Below, one piece after another: positions 9,974 through 42,514 of a stretch of DNA of 64,000 nucleotides. The notes beneath the pieces were generated by a model that saw only the letters and a list, made by a program, of their open reading frames with translations, ran no database searches and was not told the origin of the DNA. The stretch comes from Giardia intestinalis (Eukaryota), in assembly GCA_000002435.2 (NCBI GenBank), contig CM018792.1. One strand, given 5' to 3'. The position numbers and the translations under genes are program-made. How positions within the stretch are numbered: the stretch's first letter is position 1; each line of letters opens with the position of its first letter.

Positions 9974-11377
9974 CTAGTTCTCATCTAACCCCGCTTCACT
10001 TCGCAAGGCGCCGTCAACAAAACCATTTTGACCCATAACAACTACGGTTGGCTCATCCCGATTCTGCCGAGCCCGTTCTCGTGTACCCTCGCTAACACCT
10101 TCTTTCTCATGCTGACCCAACCCATCTTCATCTTCGGCCAGTGGCCGCCCTCCATAGTAGTCTCTATCTTTCCCTTGTAGCATCTCCTTACTAGTCTCCA
10201 CAGAAGCAGGCATAACGCTTGTCAACGTGCTGCTACCACCACATGCGTTTGCGGGTTGTATTTCTCTGAGCTTTTGTCGAATGTGTGTGAGCTTCTGCTC
10301 AATGTCCTGTCTTGTGTTCTGATTGGGAAGATTGATGCGTGGAACAAGCAGCGAATAATCGGGGCCATAGTACTCGTAGAACTGATTTGCTGGTATCTGT
10401 TCGGACAGGACCTGGTTACAGACGAGTGATGTCTCATATGTCCAACACTTGGCGGCAGAACGCGCTGTATACCCACCCCCACCTGTTAAGAGAAGCGGTA
10501 TGCCCTTCGCTTGCGTATACTGATACAGAATCTTAACACACTCCCCGTGACCTTTCAAGGTGACATTGAAGACCCCTAGTCGATCGCCTGCCAGCGAGTC
10601 TGCTCCACACTGCAAGACAACTGCTTGTGGATCATAGCAACACATCACATCCTTTACCACGCTTCCAAAGATGTAGATGAATGTGTCATCATCGATGGCG
10701 TCTTTCAGCGGAAAATTAATGGCGTACCCTTTCCCTTGGTCAGCTCCATTATCAAACAGATTGCCGGTGCCCGGAAAGAAGTCTGTGTCGTACTTGTGGA
10801 ATGACAGAGTCAAAACCCGATTTGTGGTATAGAAGGCCTCCTCGACTCCATCTCCGGCATGGATGTCAATATCTACATACAGCACACGCTCGTGTACCTT
10901 CAAGAGCTCAAGTATCCCTAAGACAAGATCATTGGCATAACAAAACCCAGAGGCTTCAGAAGCCTTTGCATGGTGGAACCCGCCCATCCAGTTGAGGGCT
11001 ACATCGCACATCCCATGATTCAAGTGAGCACATGCATTAACAGAAGCACCCACTGTCATGCTACAGTAGTCGTAGAGCCCAGAGAACACGGGGCAGTCTT
11101 CGGTAATGTTATATCTCTTGGCAAGGTCCTGGAACTTAGAAAGAGTCTCAGGCGTGATATTTTTCAGAAAGCGTATATAATCAGGGGTGTGGTAAAGAGC
11201 CATGTCCTGAAAAGTGGCGTCTCTAGGTGTATAGTAGTTCAAATGCTCATCCAAGCCGTATGCTAAAATAAGCTCATTCACCAAGGCAATCCTGAATGGC
11301 TTCATCGGATGATGCAGCCCAAAGTAGAAGGTGGGGAAGAGTGGGTTGTAGAAGAAGGAGGGTTTTGAAGGCGGCAT
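9974..11377 (-). CDS. Class I histone deacetylase (HDAC1/Rpd3 family)
   Basis: It carries canonical HDAC blocks: GFCYANDLVLGILELLK, VLYVDIDIHAGDGVEEAF, SFHKYDTDFFPGTG, QCGADSLAGDRLG, and LLLTGGGGYT. The ATG at 11375-11377 was verified. Confidence 0.92.
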   Translation of the reverse strand: MPPSKPSFFYNPLFPTFYFGLHHPMKPFRIALVNELILAYGLDEHLNYYTPRDATFQDMALYHTPDYIRFLKNITPETLSKFQDLAKRYNITEDCPVFSGLYDYCSMTVGASVNACAHLNHGMCDVALNWMGGFHHAKASEASGFCYANDLVLGILELLKVHERVLYVDIDIHAGDGVEEAFYTTNRVLTLSFHKYDTDFFPGTGNLFDNGADQGKGYAINFPLKDAIDDDTFIYIFGSVVKDVMCCYDPQAVVLQCGADSLAGDRLGVFNVTLKGHGECVKILYQYTQAKGIPLLLTGGGGYTARSAAKCWTYETSLVCNQVLSEQIPANQFYEYYGPDYSLLVPRINLPNQNTRQDIEQKLTHIRQKLREIQPANACGGSSTLTSVMPASVETSKEMLQGKDRDYYGGRPLAEDEDGLGQHEKEGVSEGTRERARQNRDEPTVVVMGQNGFVDGALRSEAGLDEN

Positions 11378-36489: not shown

Positions 36490-37284
36490 CTACTCTATGA
36501 CTGTGTTAACTCGCTGATGACAGCGATTGCGTACTTGTACCATTTGGCTAGGCGATCGTCTGATCACACGTTCCGAATCTAGTCCATACTCTTGCGCAAA
36601 GCTGTATAGAGAGCATTCCCCAGGGAGGATTGGAGGCTTGTAGTCTTTATCATCTGATGCGTGTGCAGGGACTGGTGGGCATAGCGTGATGGCGCCCATA
36701 AATGCGACGCGTTGGTGCACTACCGAAGGACTCTGCACAAACTGCGCGACTGTCTTGTAAATAGCTGAAAGGCTGGTTGAGGTGGCATCTCTGTCAAGTG
36801 CCTTCCCTCTGAGTACCCATAAGGATGTGGTGTAGGAGATAAAGCTGTCCAGCAGGTGGCCGATCACATGCTGAAGATCTGGAAACCTGAGCTTTAGCCG
36901 CTCTCCGATGACTAACAATGAAGCAACTTGCATGTCAAGTACTTCTATTTGCTTGCAAGTAACTATCGACGGATAGGTGTCTGCTGCAGCTTCTGTGACA
37001 TCCTCCATGATGCATCGGCTTTGAACAGCCTGAACCAAACTGCTCCAAAGTGGCGCATGCTTGATCTTGGAGATGTGTGGAGCACCCTTAAGCCGTGGTT
37101 CGGAGAGAGCTACATGCAAGGTACCCTTAGCTTGCTTTCCAGTAGGGAACCAATCTGGATCATTTCCCTCCTGACGATCTTCCTTCTCTCGCTTAGCTGC
37201 TTCATCTAGAGAGTAGGTTCCATAGTATCTAAAGATCAATCTGCCAAGGAAGCTAGAAGGATCCAACTCGAAAGAGCTATCCAT
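36490..37284 (-). CDS. Hypothetical protein (264 aa)
   Basis: The ORF is 36490..37323, but the track start is TTG and the first ATG is at 37282-37284 (MDSSFELD). It has no recognised motif. Confidence 0.45.
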   Translation of the reverse strand: MDSSFELDPSSFLGRLIFRYYGTYSLDEAAKREKEDRQEGNDPDWFPTGKQAKGTLHVALSEPRLKGAPHISKIKHAPLWSSLVQAVQSRCIMEDVTEAAADTYPSIVTCKQIEVLDMQVASLLVIGERLKLRFPDLQHVIGHLLDSFISYTTSLWVLRGKALDRDATSTSLSAIYKTVAQFVQSPSVVHQRVAFMGAITLCPPVPAHASDDKDYKPPILPGECSLYSFAQEYGLDSERVIRRSPSQMVQVRNRCHQRVNTVIE

Positions 37285-37325: not shown

Positions 37326-38546
37326 TTACTGTGATTCTCCACCTTCCCCATCAGCTAGAGGAAGAGTGTCGTAGCAGGACTGGCGAATAATTCCAACAAC
37401 TTCGGGCACTGTTATCGGCCAGGGGTGCATCTTATTCTTTCCGCTTGCAAATAGAGAAATTGCATAGTCCATTACTTCTTCCTCGTCATAAAGAGTGCGG
37501 CGACCCTCCACATCTGCGCAAATGACCTGCTCAACCATATCTTTGAACTCCTCATAACTGTCCATTTGGAATGCAGAAAGAATCTTCTCTAGCGTCTTTT
37601 CGAAGCGCTGATCGTCATGTGTCTCCGAGTGCTGCTTACATATATTCAGATACGCTATCAAGAAGATGGCACAGGCCTTCCCGTGTGGAACACCCTTGAA
37701 ATAGGTTATCTTGTACGAAAGACCGTGTGCAATGGAGGTGCCTCCAATTGTAATGGCTATACCAGCGTAGCAAGAGGCAAGCGTCATCTCATCGCGAAAC
37801 TCTGTCATCTCCGGGTCTGTTAAGTCCGTAAATGTTGTCTTCATGATCGCCGGCTTCAAGTAGAAATGCCAGCAGATCTGAAGATGCTTAAGGCTCTCAA
37901 CAGATGCTTTAACAGAGAGCTCAGTTGTTTTAACCGTAAGCATAGATTCAACTGCATGACACAGGATGTCCAGGAACATGCTAAGCGTTTGAGATGTCGG
38001 CAGATACAGTTGATAGCAAGGGTCGACCAGCGAGATCTTCGGAAATACGAGGTTAGGAATGCTGATTTTAGTTTGCTTAATGTGGTCGGTCAAAATGGCA
38101 TAGGGCGTTACTTCAGAGGCTGTGCCTGCTGCCGTGCTAATGCATATCACATCCTTTGGTGACTCAGAGATTGCCACCTTGATGCCCTCCTTGTTGACTA
38201 GATATACAGCAATGGCTTTTGCCGCATCCATAGCGGAGCCCCCTCCCAGCCCAATGACAAAGTCCACCTGCTTACCAGACACCTGTCTGGCTGCCTTTGT
38301 GACGGTCACTGTACTAGGGTTCGGCTCAACCTCATTGAAAAGATAACTTTCGATCTCGTGGCTGGCTAATATGTCCTTTAGCTTGCTCAACGAGTGGTTT
38401 GCCTGGGATGAAGTACTTCCTGTGACCACAAGAGCCTTCTTGCCTGCATACGACGCAAAGATACTTGCATGTTTCTCAAGCACGTCGCGATCGATATAAA
38501 TTGGATGCCTGATCACATCGGCAAAGGCACTCAGGTCGAGGGGCAT
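37326..38546 (-). CDS. Iron-containing (group III) alcohol dehydrogenase
   Basis: It has the Fe-ADH signature GLGGGSAMDAAKAIAVY and the metal-binding His cluster AHGLSYKITYFKGVPHGKACAIFL. The track start (38655-38657) is GTG. The ATG at 38652-38654 would abut the upstream HCMP stop, so I chose the ATG at 38544-38546 (MPLDLSAFADVIRHPIYID), which is preceded by an AT-rich initiator-like sequence (aatctaattttaaaATG on the coding strand) and fits the Fe-ADH N-terminus. Confidence 0.85.
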   Translation of the reverse strand: MPLDLSAFADVIRHPIYIDRDVLEKHASIFASYAGKKALVVTGSTSSQANHSLSKLKDILASHEIESYLFNEVEPNPSTVTVTKAARQVSGKQVDFVIGLGGGSAMDAAKAIAVYLVNKEGIKVAISESPKDVICISTAAGTASEVTPYAILTDHIKQTKISIPNLVFPKISLVDPCYQLYLPTSQTLSMFLDILCHAVESMLTVKTTELSVKASVESLKHLQICWHFYLKPAIMKTTFTDLTDPEMTEFRDEMTLASCYAGIAITIGGTSIAHGLSYKITYFKGVPHGKACAIFLIAYLNICKQHSETHDDQRFEKTLEKILSAFQMDSYEEFKDMVEQVICADVEGRRTLYDEEEVMDYAISLFASGKNKMHPWPITVPEVVGIIRQSCYDTLPLADGEGGESQ

Positions 38547-38653
38547 TTTTAAAATTAGATTTCTCAAGGACACCGAGTCGCTTTGTTGCGACCTCATATC
38601 TGAGAGTACGGACCAGGTCCATTTACTAGGGAGCTGGTAGCTATGAAAAAACA

Positions 38654-40822
38654 TCACATTAGTCCGATTCGTGAGCTCACTATTGAAGAATTGCTAGAGA
38701 GTTTTGGAGGCATGTTCACCTTATTAGTCTTTTTCTTACATACAAACCACCAGACAAGAAACCCTATTACGCCTGCTATTGCCAATATTGCGATAGTAAC
38801 CCCTACTGCGATACCTGTTGCATTAGATCGAGACCCTGTCTCATTCTGAGGTTGGGTGCTATACTCAAGGCAATGAACAGGGCCATGTCCAGTGGACGGA
38901 GCCTTGCACTTGGTGCAGTTGGGAACCCCCATAATGAGAGAGCCACTGTCCGTTGAATCGCACTTAAAGCAGTACCTATTGTTGACAATAGCATAGGTTG
39001 ATTGACAGCTGGTACAGTAAAGATCAGAATTACAGCTCATACACCCTTCGCCGCAATGAATGCATTTCCGGGTCTGTGTGTTTCCAATGTAAGGACCAAG
39101 AGTCGCGCAATCGGATACACAGGATCCGTCGGGTGCTAGAAAGAAGTTCTCCTGACAGCGATCACACGTTGACGGATCTGTCTGGCAAAGCTCGCAATTT
39201 TTCATTGAGCATGAAGTTGAAGAGATGCAGTGAACCTGATTAAAATTGGGAACCATTCCGGTAGTACAAGCACTACATTTTAACTCAGTCGTCGTGTAAC
39301 CGCCTTTGTAACAGCGAATGCAGTTTGGTATCCCTGTAAAGGTACTGCCAGACTGGGTAGATGAGCAAGCAATGCAGTTTCCCACTGATCCTGGAACATA
39401 CTGTTCCGGGACACAGTCTGTACACTGGTTTTCTCCAGGGCCTACACAAGCCCTACAGCTGGAATGGCACTTCTCGCAGGCACCAGTAGCACTGTCTCCA
39501 TAGTAGTGATTGTCATCACTGTTCTGAGTGCTGCAGTTACTCACACACGTTTTATTATCAAGAGCAAGATAGGTGCGCATGTGGCACACAGCACACCTTG
39601 TCGTATCCGTAGTGTTGCACGTTTTGCATGCAAGGATGCTACAGTCACCCTCGGGAGGTCCAGGCGGCGTAACAGCATTGCAGTGATTATTTTGAGGAAC
39701 CGATCCATCAGAGCATTTCGTACAAGTTAATGTGGATTGCGCATATGAACACTCCACACAGTTTGCAATACCCTGTCTAGCTGTATCGCTACATGAAACG
39801 CATGCTTGCATATCACTCGCAGTAGGATTGGTGAACAGACCAGATGCTGTGCTTGTGTTACACTGCAGGCATCTGCCACCGACATCCACATCTCCAGAGC
39901 AGATGGACCTAGCCAGAGTGGAGTACCTGTGATAGCAGCCTCCATAGTGGTAAACAAACTTCTTCTCAGCACACTGTGTACACCGTCCACCACTACATGT
40001 GCACATAAGGTTAAAGTCACTACAATCACCGTCTATAATCGCTAAACCGGTGTTCTTACATTGCTTGCAGCATATAGTATCAGCTACGTGAATCTGATTG
40101 GATACTTCACAGATTTTGGGGGCATAATTTCCGTTGGCCAAAAGACACGTGGATGCAAACTGCAGAAAGCCTGCTCCACAACGGTTACAATATGTAGATC
40201 CAGACGACGTAGAATGCACACACCCCGAAAGGGCATCCTCTACGCCTCCGATGGGAACACACTTGTTGTCTATGGCTACTTTGTCTCTGTCAGCGCAGCC
40301 ATGACAGATGACCACAAAACCGCCTGTGCTGCCATCGTCTGGAATTGCCGTGCACAGGTTGCACCCGGAAGTACCATCTGACTCAAAGCATGCAATGCAA
40401 GACTGAGTTGTGGAGGATTTCTTCGGATTATCAGTATATCCATCTTGGTTGCACTGAGTACAATAACCGTCAACCAGTTGCTCATTCTCATCATCAACAA
40501 AGTCACATACTAGACTTCCAGCGCTGTCCGTGCTGATGTTGAAGCAGCTACCGTAATGGAGAAAATAACCTTTAGTACATCTAGTGCATCCTGCTGCCGA
40601 ACAAACGTTTCCTTGTGCGTCATTTGCAGATACACATCTACCGTTTATAGGAACCTTCTCTGTTGCACATTTAGAACAGTATTTGAGATCATTTATAGAG
40701 ATTGTACAAGAGCCAGACACACCACCGCAGTCACTATCAGATGTGCATCCGGCAACAATAGAGGCCTTAATAATTACTGTAACTAGAATCATGGCTAGGG
40801 ATGTGTGCAAAGAAGTCATCAT
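38654..40822 (-). CDS. High cysteine membrane protein (HCMP)
   Basis: It has a signal peptide (MMTSLHTSLAMILVTVIIKASIVAG), 722 aa of CxxC/GxC repeats, and a C-terminal TM (IAVGVTIAILAIAGVIGFLVWWFV) with a basic tail KKKTNKV... and no CRGKA. The ATG at 40820-40822 was verified and has an AT-rich upstream sequence. Confidence 0.8.
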   Translation of the reverse strand: MMTSLHTSLAMILVTVIIKASIVAGCTSDSDCGGVSGSCTISINDLKYCSKCATEKVPINGRCVSANDAQGNVCSAAGCTRCTKGYFLHYGSCFNISTDSAGSLVCDFVDDENEQLVDGYCTQCNQDGYTDNPKKSSTTQSCIACFESDGTSGCNLCTAIPDDGSTGGFVVICHGCADRDKVAIDNKCVPIGGVEDALSGCVHSTSSGSTYCNRCGAGFLQFASTCLLANGNYAPKICEVSNQIHVADTICCKQCKNTGLAIIDGDCSDFNLMCTCSGGRCTQCAEKKFVYHYGGCYHRYSTLARSICSGDVDVGGRCLQCNTSTASGLFTNPTASDMQACVSCSDTARQGIANCVECSYAQSTLTCTKCSDGSVPQNNHCNAVTPPGPPEGDCSILACKTCNTTDTTRCAVCHMRTYLALDNKTCVSNCSTQNSDDNHYYGDSATGACEKCHSSCRACVGPGENQCTDCVPEQYVPGSVGNCIACSSTQSGSTFTGIPNCIRCYKGGYTTTELKCSACTTGMVPNFNQVHCISSTSCSMKNCELCQTDPSTCDRCQENFFLAPDGSCVSDCATLGPYIGNTQTRKCIHCGEGCMSCNSDLYCTSCQSTYAIVNNRYCFKCDSTDSGSLIMGVPNCTKCKAPSTGHGPVHCLEYSTQPQNETGSRSNATGIAVGVTIAILAIAGVIGFLVWWFVCKKKTNKVNMPPKLSSNSSIVSSRIGLM

Positions 40823-40863
40823 TTAATCTTTAAATTTTTGTTCCGCATGTAGAGTAGAATAGG

Positions 40864-42045
40864 TTACAACGTTAACGTTTCTAACCGCTCTATGCTCGTG
40901 TGCATTGTTGGAGAAAGGGTATTGTCATATCCTGCCTCTAGAAGCAGCCTTATTTCGAGATCACTTAAGGGCGCATAGGGGAGAGTGGGAAGAACGTGAT
41001 CAATACATAGAGCAATGTCGTCTACGTTGTCGCTAGTTGAGCAAAGCAGGCCTTCTCCGTCTGCCTTGCAAATCTCCTTTATGACCTGTCCCAAACCGTC
41101 TACAGACTCAACCCCTATAGATTCATATAGTTGGCGAATTTCTTTGCCCAACGAATCTTCTCTTATCCGTAGAAGAGGCGCAAGGAACATAGCTGACGAT
41201 TTCCCAATATTGGACCCATGCCTATAGGAGACTGCTGATCCCAAGTATGTCAAAAACCCGATGCCTAGTTTGTTTTGTAGCAGGCCAATCTCCACTGCAC
41301 ACGCTGCAAGAGCATATATAAAGTCTCGCTTCTTTAAGTACTCAGTGTTGAATGATTTTAGGTAGGGTCTGATCCCCAGGAGCCAAGCATCGTATGTATG
41401 CACGAGGAGACGAAGATAGACCGGCTGACATTCAGGATAAAGGGAAACACCTCCTGCCAGTAGATACTCGGCTGCATTCACTATACCCATCAAGAATGCA
41501 GGGATGCTCATGGCCGGTGTCAGCGTCTCAAAGTACGTGGTGCTTAAAAGAACAGTTTCTGCTCTTAGGGTACAAATTATACTAATGCAATGCTTGCAGC
41601 GATGATCCATCAAGACTGTGAGCCGGGTGGACAGGGCTCCACAGCCAGGACCCGTGGGGATTAGTATGAGCGGTGTCCTGACGCTGCTAGTCTCGTGGTT
41701 TGATGCCACAAACTTTGCAACGCTCAGCACAGAACCCCCACCAATCGCAATTAAAAAGCTTGCGCCACTCTTCCGAAACGTCTTCGTAGCCAGGTGGGCT
41801 GACGTTACAGATGCGCCCGATTCTAGTATCTTATGGTGCTGGTATGCAATAGAGAGTTGCTCGAGGGCTCCTATGACATCTGCCATTGCCCCGGACTGAT
41901 GCCCGGATTGCATCCCAGTAATGAGCATGCAGCGCTCCTCTGCTAGCGGCATCAATATAGTTAGCAATCTAGGGAAGATGTTATCCGGCATTTCAACGTT
42001 AAGCCCGTTCAGTCGCGCTATGTCGTCCATCACTGCTTGGTTCAT
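40864..42045 (-). CDS. Fe-alcohol-dehydrogenase-like protein, divergent paralog with degenerate cofactor/metal motifs (possible pseudoenzyme)
   Basis: AIGGGSVLSVAKFVA aligns to the GGGSxxDxAK motif, but the Asp is replaced by Ser. The C-terminal region SYRHGSNIGKSSAMFL aligns to the His cluster with one His replaced by Ile. The ATG at 42043-42045 was verified. An alternative ATG at 41989-41991 would remove the 47-nt overlap with the upstream EF-hand gene. Confidence 0.6.
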   Translation of the reverse strand: MNQAVMDDIARLNGLNVEMPDNIFPRLLTILMPLAEERCMLITGMQSGHQSGAMADVIGALEQLSIAYQHHKILESGASVTSAHLATKTFRKSGASFLIAIGGGSVLSVAKFVASNHETSSVRTPLILIPTGPGCGALSTRLTVLMDHRCKHCISIICTLRAETVLLSTTYFETLTPAMSIPAFLMGIVNAAEYLLAGGVSLYPECQPVYLRLLVHTYDAWLLGIRPYLKSFNTEYLKKRDFIYALAACAVEIGLLQNKLGIGFLTYLGSAVSYRHGSNIGKSSAMFLAPLLRIREDSLGKEIRQLYESIGVESVDGLGQVIKEICKADGEGLLCSTSDNVDDIALCIDHVLPTLPYAPLSDLEIRLLLEAGYDNTLSPTMHTSIERLETLTL

Positions 42046-42514
42046 GATTTTTGGAATCCTTGCATTTCCTTAGGATGGCGCGTAGCTGTTCATATGTGAA
42101 TTTTTCACTGCCATCGGGCGCATGTTCGTTTTGAAAGTGGGCCCATCTCGTATCTGCTACACTGGCTCCGAACTTCTCGAGCAGACACCTCAGTTGGTTG
42201 ATGTGGATTGTTCCAGTAGACGCTGGATCAAGGGTTTCTACCAGCATCGTGAAGATCTCATCCTCCTGAGGTTTATTGGTCAAAAGAATAGCTGCTCTTT
42301 CAACATCATACACAGTGTACCTTCTCTCTGGATGTATTTGCAAAGCCGATAGTACCTCGTTTAGAGAGTCTCCACTTGTAGCAAACCCGGAGCTTAGCAG
42401 CACATTGCTAAGTTCGTCAAATGTGAGAAAGCATCCACCCGTTTGCAGGCATGACCCTAGCACTTCTTCACACCGGCTCCACTCTTCACCAAACTCACAC
42501 TTGTCCAGTTCCAT
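41999..42514 (-). CDS. Small EF-hand-like protein (171 aa)
   Basis: It has helix-loop-helix pairs such as FLTFDELSNVLL and EIFTMLVETLDPASTGTIHINQLRCLLEKFG. The ATG at 42512-42514 was verified and is preceded by an AT-rich sequence. The assignment is tentative. Confidence 0.4.
   Translation of the reverse strand: MELDKCEFGEEWSRCEEVLGSCLQTGGCFLTFDELSNVLLSSGFATSGDSLNEVLSALQIHPERRYTVYDVERAAILLTNKPQEDEIFTMLVETLDPASTGTIHINQLRCLLEKFGASVADTRWAHFQNEHAPDGSEKFTYEQLRAILRKCKDSKNHEPSSDGRHSATERA

Follow-up and report, generated by a model that had tools for sequence, protein, structure and literature searches.

The interval 37326..42045 of a 64,000-nucleotide stretch of the Giardia intestinalis WB genome (GenBank assembly GCA_000002435.2, contig CM018792.1; hereafter the window) is filled by three open reading frames (ORFs), all on the minus strand: an iron-containing alcohol dehydrogenase (Fe-ADH) gene at 37326..38546 (P1, here identified as ADH3), a gene for a high-cysteine membrane protein (HCMP) at 38654..40822, and a degenerate Fe-ADH gene at 40864..42045 (P2). 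Judged by its residues and its pattern of selection, P2 is probably (probability about 0.7) a catalytically dead but functional paralog of ADH3, a pseudo-dehydrogenase with a role in non-catalytic binding or regulation. This arrangement had been described in an original prediction made from the nucleotide letters, and both Fe-ADH ORFs were found exactly at the positions it gave, in the same orientation, 2.3 kb apart and with the HCMP gene between them.

The 393 aa P2 protein is identical to WB entry XP_001704905.1/KAE8304445.1/A8BTM2, annotated as "Iron-containing alcohol dehydrogenase"; the P15 and GS orthologues were first recorded as hypothetical proteins GLP15_698 and GL50581_394. The original prediction had taken P2 for an Fe-ADH homologue and proposed a Pfam alignment, in which P2 matches the Fe-ADH (group III alcohol dehydrogenase) model PF00465 at E=2.6e-18 (66.6 bits vs a cut-off of 31.3). 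A sequence search of the PDB ranks 9jx4 first (3e-16) and TM0920 (1vhd/1o2d) next, as it does for ADH3, to which P2 is 22% identical over 339 residues (E=5e-12). The C-terminal model ADH_Fe_C (PF25137) gives no Pfam match in P2, but an AlphaFold2 model of the protein (pLDDT 83.9, pTM 0.85) aligns over both domains, with 1o2d (TM0920) as the top Foldseek match (TMt 0.81, 17% identity); because this match extends across 379 columns, the C-terminal helical domain is probably present even though it is invisible to Pfam. The NCBIfam matches of both paralogs all fall far below the curated cut-offs, so that neither receives an equivalog assignment. The highest for P2 is the ErcA model NF041833, at 34 bits vs a cut-off of 550. 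ErcA of Pseudomonas is an Fe-ADH-family protein named for its regulatory role, which in these bacteria belongs to a two-component system, and P2 is not a member of that group. By their nearest solved relatives, P2 and ADH3 belong to the same PDD-like/TM0920-like (cd08181) subfamily, to which diplomonad members are also assigned in a published survey of eukaryotic Fe-ADHs (PMC5125639).

Residues of P2 were mapped by a phmmer alignment to 9jx4 and a 16-sequence multiple sequence alignment (MSA), with a second MSA as a cross-check. The Fe-ADH metal is held by one Asp and three His (D/H/H/H; PMC5125639); in this family the Asp and the first His share a helix (D-x3-H), and the other two His are spaced 14 residues from each other. 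In the phmmer alignment and the 16-sequence MSA, P2 has M186 at the Asp position and N190, T266 and I280 at the three His positions; M186 and N190 lie in MGIVN (41476..41490), T266 at 41248-41250, and I280 in SNIGKSSAMFL (residues 278-288, 41182..41214). The second MSA moves the first two positions by four residues, onto N190/Y194, and the loss holds in either register because residues 183-196 include no Asp and no His. Conservation of the metal-binding His and Asp in P2, which the original prediction had named as the result that would overturn it, was not seen, all four being replaced. The same prediction had quoted SNIGKSSAMFL as standing where an HxxxH...H cluster should be; the string is present, but the family has no such cluster, and the string covers the last His position only.

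Losses on the nicotinamide/ribose side of the cofactor site accompany those at the metal site. The Asp of GGGSxxD is S108 in P2, within GGGSVLSVAK (residues 102-111, 41713..41742), a replacement that the original prediction had quoted correctly. The TTxGTGSE loop reads TGPGCGAL (residues 131-138, 41632..41655; phmmer alignment to 9jx4 and MSAs), in which Thr has become Cys and Glu has become Leu, and the E-NPS loop is replaced in the MSAs by ESGAS (residues 75-79, 41809..41823), with G77-A78 for its Asn-Pro. Retained are GGGS itself (G102-G103-G104-S105, invariant), K111, G44, T131, G134 and the Gly-Lys that follows the last ligand position. GGGS is the pyrophosphate-binding motif and the G44 position has been linked to NADP preference (PMC5125639). 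Such losses are rare in the family: among 235 prokaryote-type homologues, all four ligands are kept in 224 and two or more are lost in 3, while the GGGSxxD Asp and the TGSE Glu are each conserved in ~100%, the NPS Asn in 96% and the NPS Pro in 99%.

Among prokaryote-type members of the subfamily, P0321 (359 aa, a bacterial-type protein retrieved by the exhaustive search described below), P0280 and P0339 also lack two or more metal ligands. In P0321 the first and second ligands are replaced by Met and Asn, the residues that P2 has there in one of the two alignment registers. Bacteria may thus have evolved degenerate Fe-ADHs of their own.

The P2 ORF is intact, at about 393 aa, in five G. intestinalis lineages, with orthologues 88% identical in assemblage E, 80-81% in assemblage B and 75-76% in two further lineages (X5 and X6). 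The degenerate motifs are the same in all five orthologues except at position 266, which is T, M or I. Ratios of nonsynonymous to synonymous divergence (dN/dS) were calculated by the Nei-Gojobori method with assemblages A and E as the reference pair, at which P2 is unsaturated (dS 0.55). For this pair dN/dS is 0.107 in P2, 0.058 in ADH3, 0.143 in the HCMP gene, 0.18 in the EF-hand gene that flanks P2 and 0.12 in the hypothetical gene downstream of ADH3. P2 gives 0.076 between X5 and X6 and 0.06-0.09 in the remaining pairs, over synonymous distances among the five lineages that run from dS 0.55 to >2. With dN/dS at about 0.1, P2 is under purifying selection and is not a pseudogene.

Constraint is distributed differently in the two paralogs. 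Across residues 41-100 (beta2 to beta4; 41746..41925), the ADP-binding half of the Rossmann-like domain and the most conserved stretch of P2, variable sites among A, E, B and X5 number 8/60 in P2 vs 19/60 in the homologous part of ADH3; across residues 101-160, the catalytic and cofactor core, they number 21/60 vs 4/60. The difference in constraint is significant for region 111-175 (Fisher p=0.003), and region 38-110 shows the opposite trend (p=0.07). The strongest constraint in P2 has thus moved from the catalytic core to the ADP-binding half. Invariant polar residues (Y274, R275, H276, N279 and E193) lie near the former metal site. The suggestion in the original prediction that P2 is a possibly neofunctionalised pseudoenzyme agrees with this combination of complete ligand loss, an intact ORF, low dN/dS and shifted constraint, and P2 is almost certainly not a canonical redox enzyme.

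ADH3, by comparison, keeps every cofactor and metal residue. The protein encoded at 37326..38546 (406 aa) is identical to WB KAE8304443.1/XP_001704899.2, "Alcohol dehydrogenase 3", GL50803_3593; the published ADH3 (GL50803_003593) has a 1,221-bp ORF and a mass of 45.4 kDa (PMC12400078), and P1 is identified with GL50803_3593 because 37326..38546 matches that ORF. Pfam finds both Fe-ADH (E=1.5e-39, 135.7 bits) and ADH_Fe_C (E=1.8e-13, 51 bits), and the closest PDB entries by sequence are 9jx4 (8e-49), followed by T. maritima TM0920 (1e-46), as expected of an intact PDD-like/TM0920-like Fe-ADH. The MSAs show NPS, GGGSxxDxxK, the TxxGTxSE loop and the conserved Lys to be retained. The dinucleotide-binding motif GGGSAMDAAK occupies residues 101-110 (38217..38246), with D107 and K110 present, and the four metal ligands are D193 and H197 (in DILCH, 37956..37970), H274 (37725-37727) and H288 (37683-37685); the full set of Fe-ADH motifs that the original prediction had ascribed to this gene is therefore there. 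ADH3 has been seen in several proteomic data sets and is an abundant, repeatedly detected protein.

Orthologues of ADH3 are 84-93% identical in other assemblages, 51% in G. muris and 40% on a eukaryote-like contig (L002), and the closest relatives outside the diplomonads are clostridial-type proteins at ~36% identity. Among eukaryotes the PDD-like (TM0920-like) subfamily is reported from Diplomonadida only (PMC5125639). The earlier description of Giardia Fe-ADHs as candidates for lateral transfer from bacteria fits these ADH3 data.

The genes around P2 bear on its origin. Assemblages A, E, B and X5 share one gene order (EF-hand gene, P2, HCMP gene, ADH3, hypothetical gene, and a Tcp10_C-like gene on the opposite strand), and X6 matches as far as P2, where its contig ends. 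In G. muris (L001) ADH3 stands in an unbroken row with orthologues of the EF-hand gene (30% identity, E=2e-8) on its upstream side and of the hypothetical gene (27%, E=1e-21) and the Tcp10_C-like gene (54% over the C-terminus) on its downstream side, and no second Fe-ADH was found near ADH3 on this contig; the spacer between the EF-hand gene and ADH3 is only 143 bp, so P2 and the HCMP gene are absent from the syntenic site. A tandem duplication of ADH3 would leave just such flanks, with the EF-hand gene still beside the upstream copy and the hypothetical gene still beside the downstream one, and this explanation is favoured. Four length features are also common to the five P2 sequences and the five ADH3 sequences of diplomonads: the segment from the HAxE Glu to the third ligand position is long, that from GGGS to PTT is shortened, the C-terminal region is long, and the loop that carries ICADVEG in ADH3 and ICKADGEG in P2 has an insertion. 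All four occur together in 0/235 other homologues, and three of them in five; as the thresholds were set after the data had been seen and two of the features overlap, they are supportive rather than conclusive.

Searches for orthologues of P2 outside G. intestinalis found none, either in a word-indexed search or in an exhaustive search with a HMMER profile of the five P2 orthologues against 1.84e9 (1.84 billion) representative proteins. Below 1e-30 the profile retrieved only P2's own cluster, and the next match was ADH3 of G. muris at 72.7 bits. Taken with the synteny and the length features, which favour the old tandem duplication put forward in the original prediction, an origin of P2 by tandem duplication of ADH3 is quite likely. 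The duplication may be placed on the G. intestinalis stem, in which case divergence then accelerated at least six-fold, or before it, in which case G. muris has lost the second copy.

Several observations weigh against P2 being a non-catalytic ADH3 paralog, some through its origin and others through its activity. As regards origin, a neighbour-joining (NJ) tree of 67 sequences, built from Kimura distances with 200 bootstraps, does not group P2 with ADH3 (bootstrap <=3.5%). The best bacterial match to the P2 profile (69.8 bits) scores close to ADH3 of G. muris, and ADH3 of G. intestinalis scores only 47-53 bits. At 13 signature columns that separate diplomonad from bacterial sequences, P2 has 1 diplomonad state, 3 bacterial states and 9 that are neither, and it shares 0/37 of the states specific to G. 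intestinalis ADH3; these counts disfavour a very recent duplication and leave the older history undecided. P2 is also up to 27% identical to bacterial proteins vs 17-22% to ADH3, which would suit a separate lateral gain of a related bacterial PDD-like Fe-ADH that landed beside ADH3, an alternative that concerns origin only. Such a gain is unlikely, since it requires an arrival within a 143-bp spacer, in the same orientation and in a way that mimics the flanks of a tandem duplication, in addition to possession of the four diplomonad ADH3 length features; the top exhaustive match outside the P2 cluster is moreover a diplomonad ADH3. The tree carries little information on this point, because P2 forms a saturated long branch at distances >2.1 to everything else.

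As regards activity, maleylacetate reductases (MARs) of the same family are active without metal (PMC5125639), and since metal-free catalysis exists in the family, that P2 is dead is something we infer. GGGS, G44, K111 and the strongly conserved ADP half-site are compatible with NAD(P) still being bound and used, the invariant polar residues near the old active site could form a new one, and purifying selection fits an enzyme as well as a binding protein. P2 could on these grounds still be an oxidoreductase, NAD(P)-dependent or otherwise, that uses newly recruited residues and dispenses with the canonical metal site. We regard this as quite unlikely: the metal-site change in MARs affects the Asp only (PMC5125639), whereas P2 lacks all four ligands together with the GGGSxxD Asp, the TGSE Glu and the NPS Asn-Pro, its former catalytic core is now less constrained than that of ADH3, and its nearest relatives in structure and sequence are of the TM0920 type, not MARs. 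A decaying, functionless relic of a duplicated ADH would explain the loss of catalytic residues, and P2 was not found in the proteome tables checked: a search by genomic location did not find it in one encystation proteome supplement that lists ADH3, look-ups under presumed neighbouring GL50803 IDs and GeneIDs likewise yielded nothing for P2, and the GS orthologue GL50581_394 is absent from secretome tables, with ADH3 present in all three supplement sets. The pseudogene explanation was rejected as extremely improbable, given an ORF that has stayed intact in five lineages over the synonymous distances noted above with dN/dS of 0.06-0.11, 60-residue stretches that are nearly invariant, and a confident AlphaFold2 fold.

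If P2 is a pseudo-dehydrogenase, the following course of events may be proposed. A laterally acquired ADH3 gene would have been duplicated in tandem on the lineage to G. intestinalis, the upstream copy keeping the EF-hand-gene flank and the downstream copy the other flank. The upstream copy, P2, would then have passed through a burst of divergence followed by renewed constraint, and, judging from its sequence, it would be unable to carry out canonical metal-dependent hydride transfer. It may now act by binding, through the GGGS loop and the ADP half-site, through a protein-protein surface in that region, or through both. It would then be either a nucleotide- or NAD(P)(H)-binding protein that serves as a sensor or buffer, or, in the manner of trypanosomatid prozymes, a partner or regulator of ADH3 that has no catalytic activity of its own. 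The binding or partner step is the least certain part of the explanation. A more specific form of it, in which P2 is a G. intestinalis-specific 'prozyme-like' subunit or redox sensor that binds an adenine dinucleotide and heteromerises with ADH3 or another partner, is speculative and has a low, though appreciable, likelihood. Were it true, P2 would tune aldehyde/alcohol or NAD(P)H metabolism to redox state, and would be the first pseudo-dehydrogenase with a regulatory role to be described from the Fe-ADH family of a eukaryote, derived from a laterally transferred gene.

P2 shares with ADH3 its subfamily, best PDB relatives, four length features and approximate size (393 vs 406 aa), but is without any metal ligand, and it has no counterpart to the ADH3 orthologues of G. 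muris and contig L002. With TM0920 (1O2D/1VHD) it shares the two-domain architecture, the GGGS loop and Gly at the NADP-favouring position. The cofactor of TM0920 is NADP, and its D/H/H/H ligands bind Fe or Zn (PMC5125639); P2, at 17% identity, has M, N, T and I at these ligand positions and lacks the cofactor-site Asp and Glu. MARs (cd08177; GraC 3W5S, MacA 3HL0), some of which the P2 model also matches in structure, are evidence that a protein of this fold need not bind metal to work: their Asp ligand is replaced (by Asn or Arg) and they are still NAD(P)H-dependent reductases (PMC5125639). Unlike MARs, P2 is without all four ligands and other invariant cofactor residues, and no MAR chain appears among its phmmer matches. 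The trypanosomatid prozymes of deoxyhypusine synthase and AdoMetDC (PMC3663545) provide a functional analogy only, that of a dead paralog specific to a parasite lineage and maintained under selection. They belong to unrelated families, and heteromer formation and activation have been demonstrated for them, whereas the likeness of P2 and ADH3 consists of paralogy and adjacency.

Full-text searches found no publication on XP_001704905, A8BTM2, GL50581_394, GLP15_698 or a Giardia Fe-ADH pseudoenzyme, and the passages searched in the survey of eukaryotic Fe-ADHs (PMC5125639) contain no discussion of P2. The gene is public under its automatic Fe-ADH name, and its probable pseudoenzyme nature is apparently undescribed. 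Pseudoenzymes that arise by duplication are already familiar; new here is a lineage-restricted, metal-site-less and selectively maintained offshoot of the PDD-like Fe-ADHs. Under its present name P2 may enter metabolic reconstructions and drug-resistance studies as a redox enzyme. In evolutionary terms, the locus would represent a laterally acquired bacterial gene that was duplicated in a eukaryotic parasite and of which one copy was repurposed, with a measurable relocation of constraint. Because only the G. intestinalis species complex has P2, the protein is of possible relevance to the biology of this parasite of humans and livestock. Should P2 act as a regulator of ADH3 or as an NAD(P)H sensor, it would matter for the fermentative and redox metabolism of Giardia, which is also the setting of nitro-drug activation.

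Two start sites have been used for ADH3. Older models (AAM94638.1, XP_001704899.1) are 442-443 aa long and extend upstream through 38547..38657, as far as the end of the HCMP gene, which they would overlap, and this extension has no homology to bacterial Fe-ADHs. In the 406-aa form, similarity to bacterial proteins sets in at about residue 16, and the ATG is directly preceded by an A/T-rich initiator, AATTTTAAAAATG. The 406-aa model is the credible one and has been adopted by the newer WB annotation.

The contig that carries the next-closest relative of ADH3 (L002; Logan SRR31929897, 56,973 bp) is gene-dense and eukaryote-like, with genes for eEF2, Ist1, SKIP/SNW and ankyrin proteins. The four length features of the diplomonad type are all present in its ADH3-like gene (10001-11185). 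The contig is not syntenic with the Giardia locus, and no second Fe-ADH lies within 10 kb of this gene. Two metagenome/Logan proteins, P0030 and P0032 (401 and 413 aa), are 33% identical to ADH3, rank high among its matches and share 3/4 of the 'diplomonad' length features. They may stem from other protists and not from bacteria, a point that bears on the dating of the lateral transfer.

The gene between the paralogs (38654..40822; 722 aa) matches the Pfam VSP model at E=5.5e-24 and encodes a protein of 11.5% Cys with 28 CXXC motifs. Because it is rich in Cys and CXXC, has a C-terminal transmembrane segment and lacks the VSP-type CRGKA tail, it is an HCMP, as the original prediction had called it. 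An orthologue stands at the same place in assemblages E and B and in X5 (L003, L004 and L005), and none at the syntenic site of G. muris. It is a positionally stable, single-copy orthologue across assemblages (62-86% identity, dN/dS 0.08-0.14), and this HCMP gene is thus not a rapidly turning-over surface-antigen gene.

The interval is flanked downstream by the hypothetical gene at 36490..37284 (minus strand), which encodes 264 aa from its first ATG and is 264 aa in other assemblages too, and upstream by the gene for the EF-hand-like protein at 41999..42514 (minus strand; 171 aa; Pfam and ORF list). The 3' end of the latter overlaps the 5' end of P2 by 47 nt in another frame (41999..42045), and because of this overlap the start region of P2, with the A-rich CCAAAAATCATG, lies inside the coding sequence of the EF-hand-like gene. 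In other assemblages the overlap is 20-47 nt (L003 7001-7047, L004 7001-7032, L005 3470-3507, L006 7001-7020).

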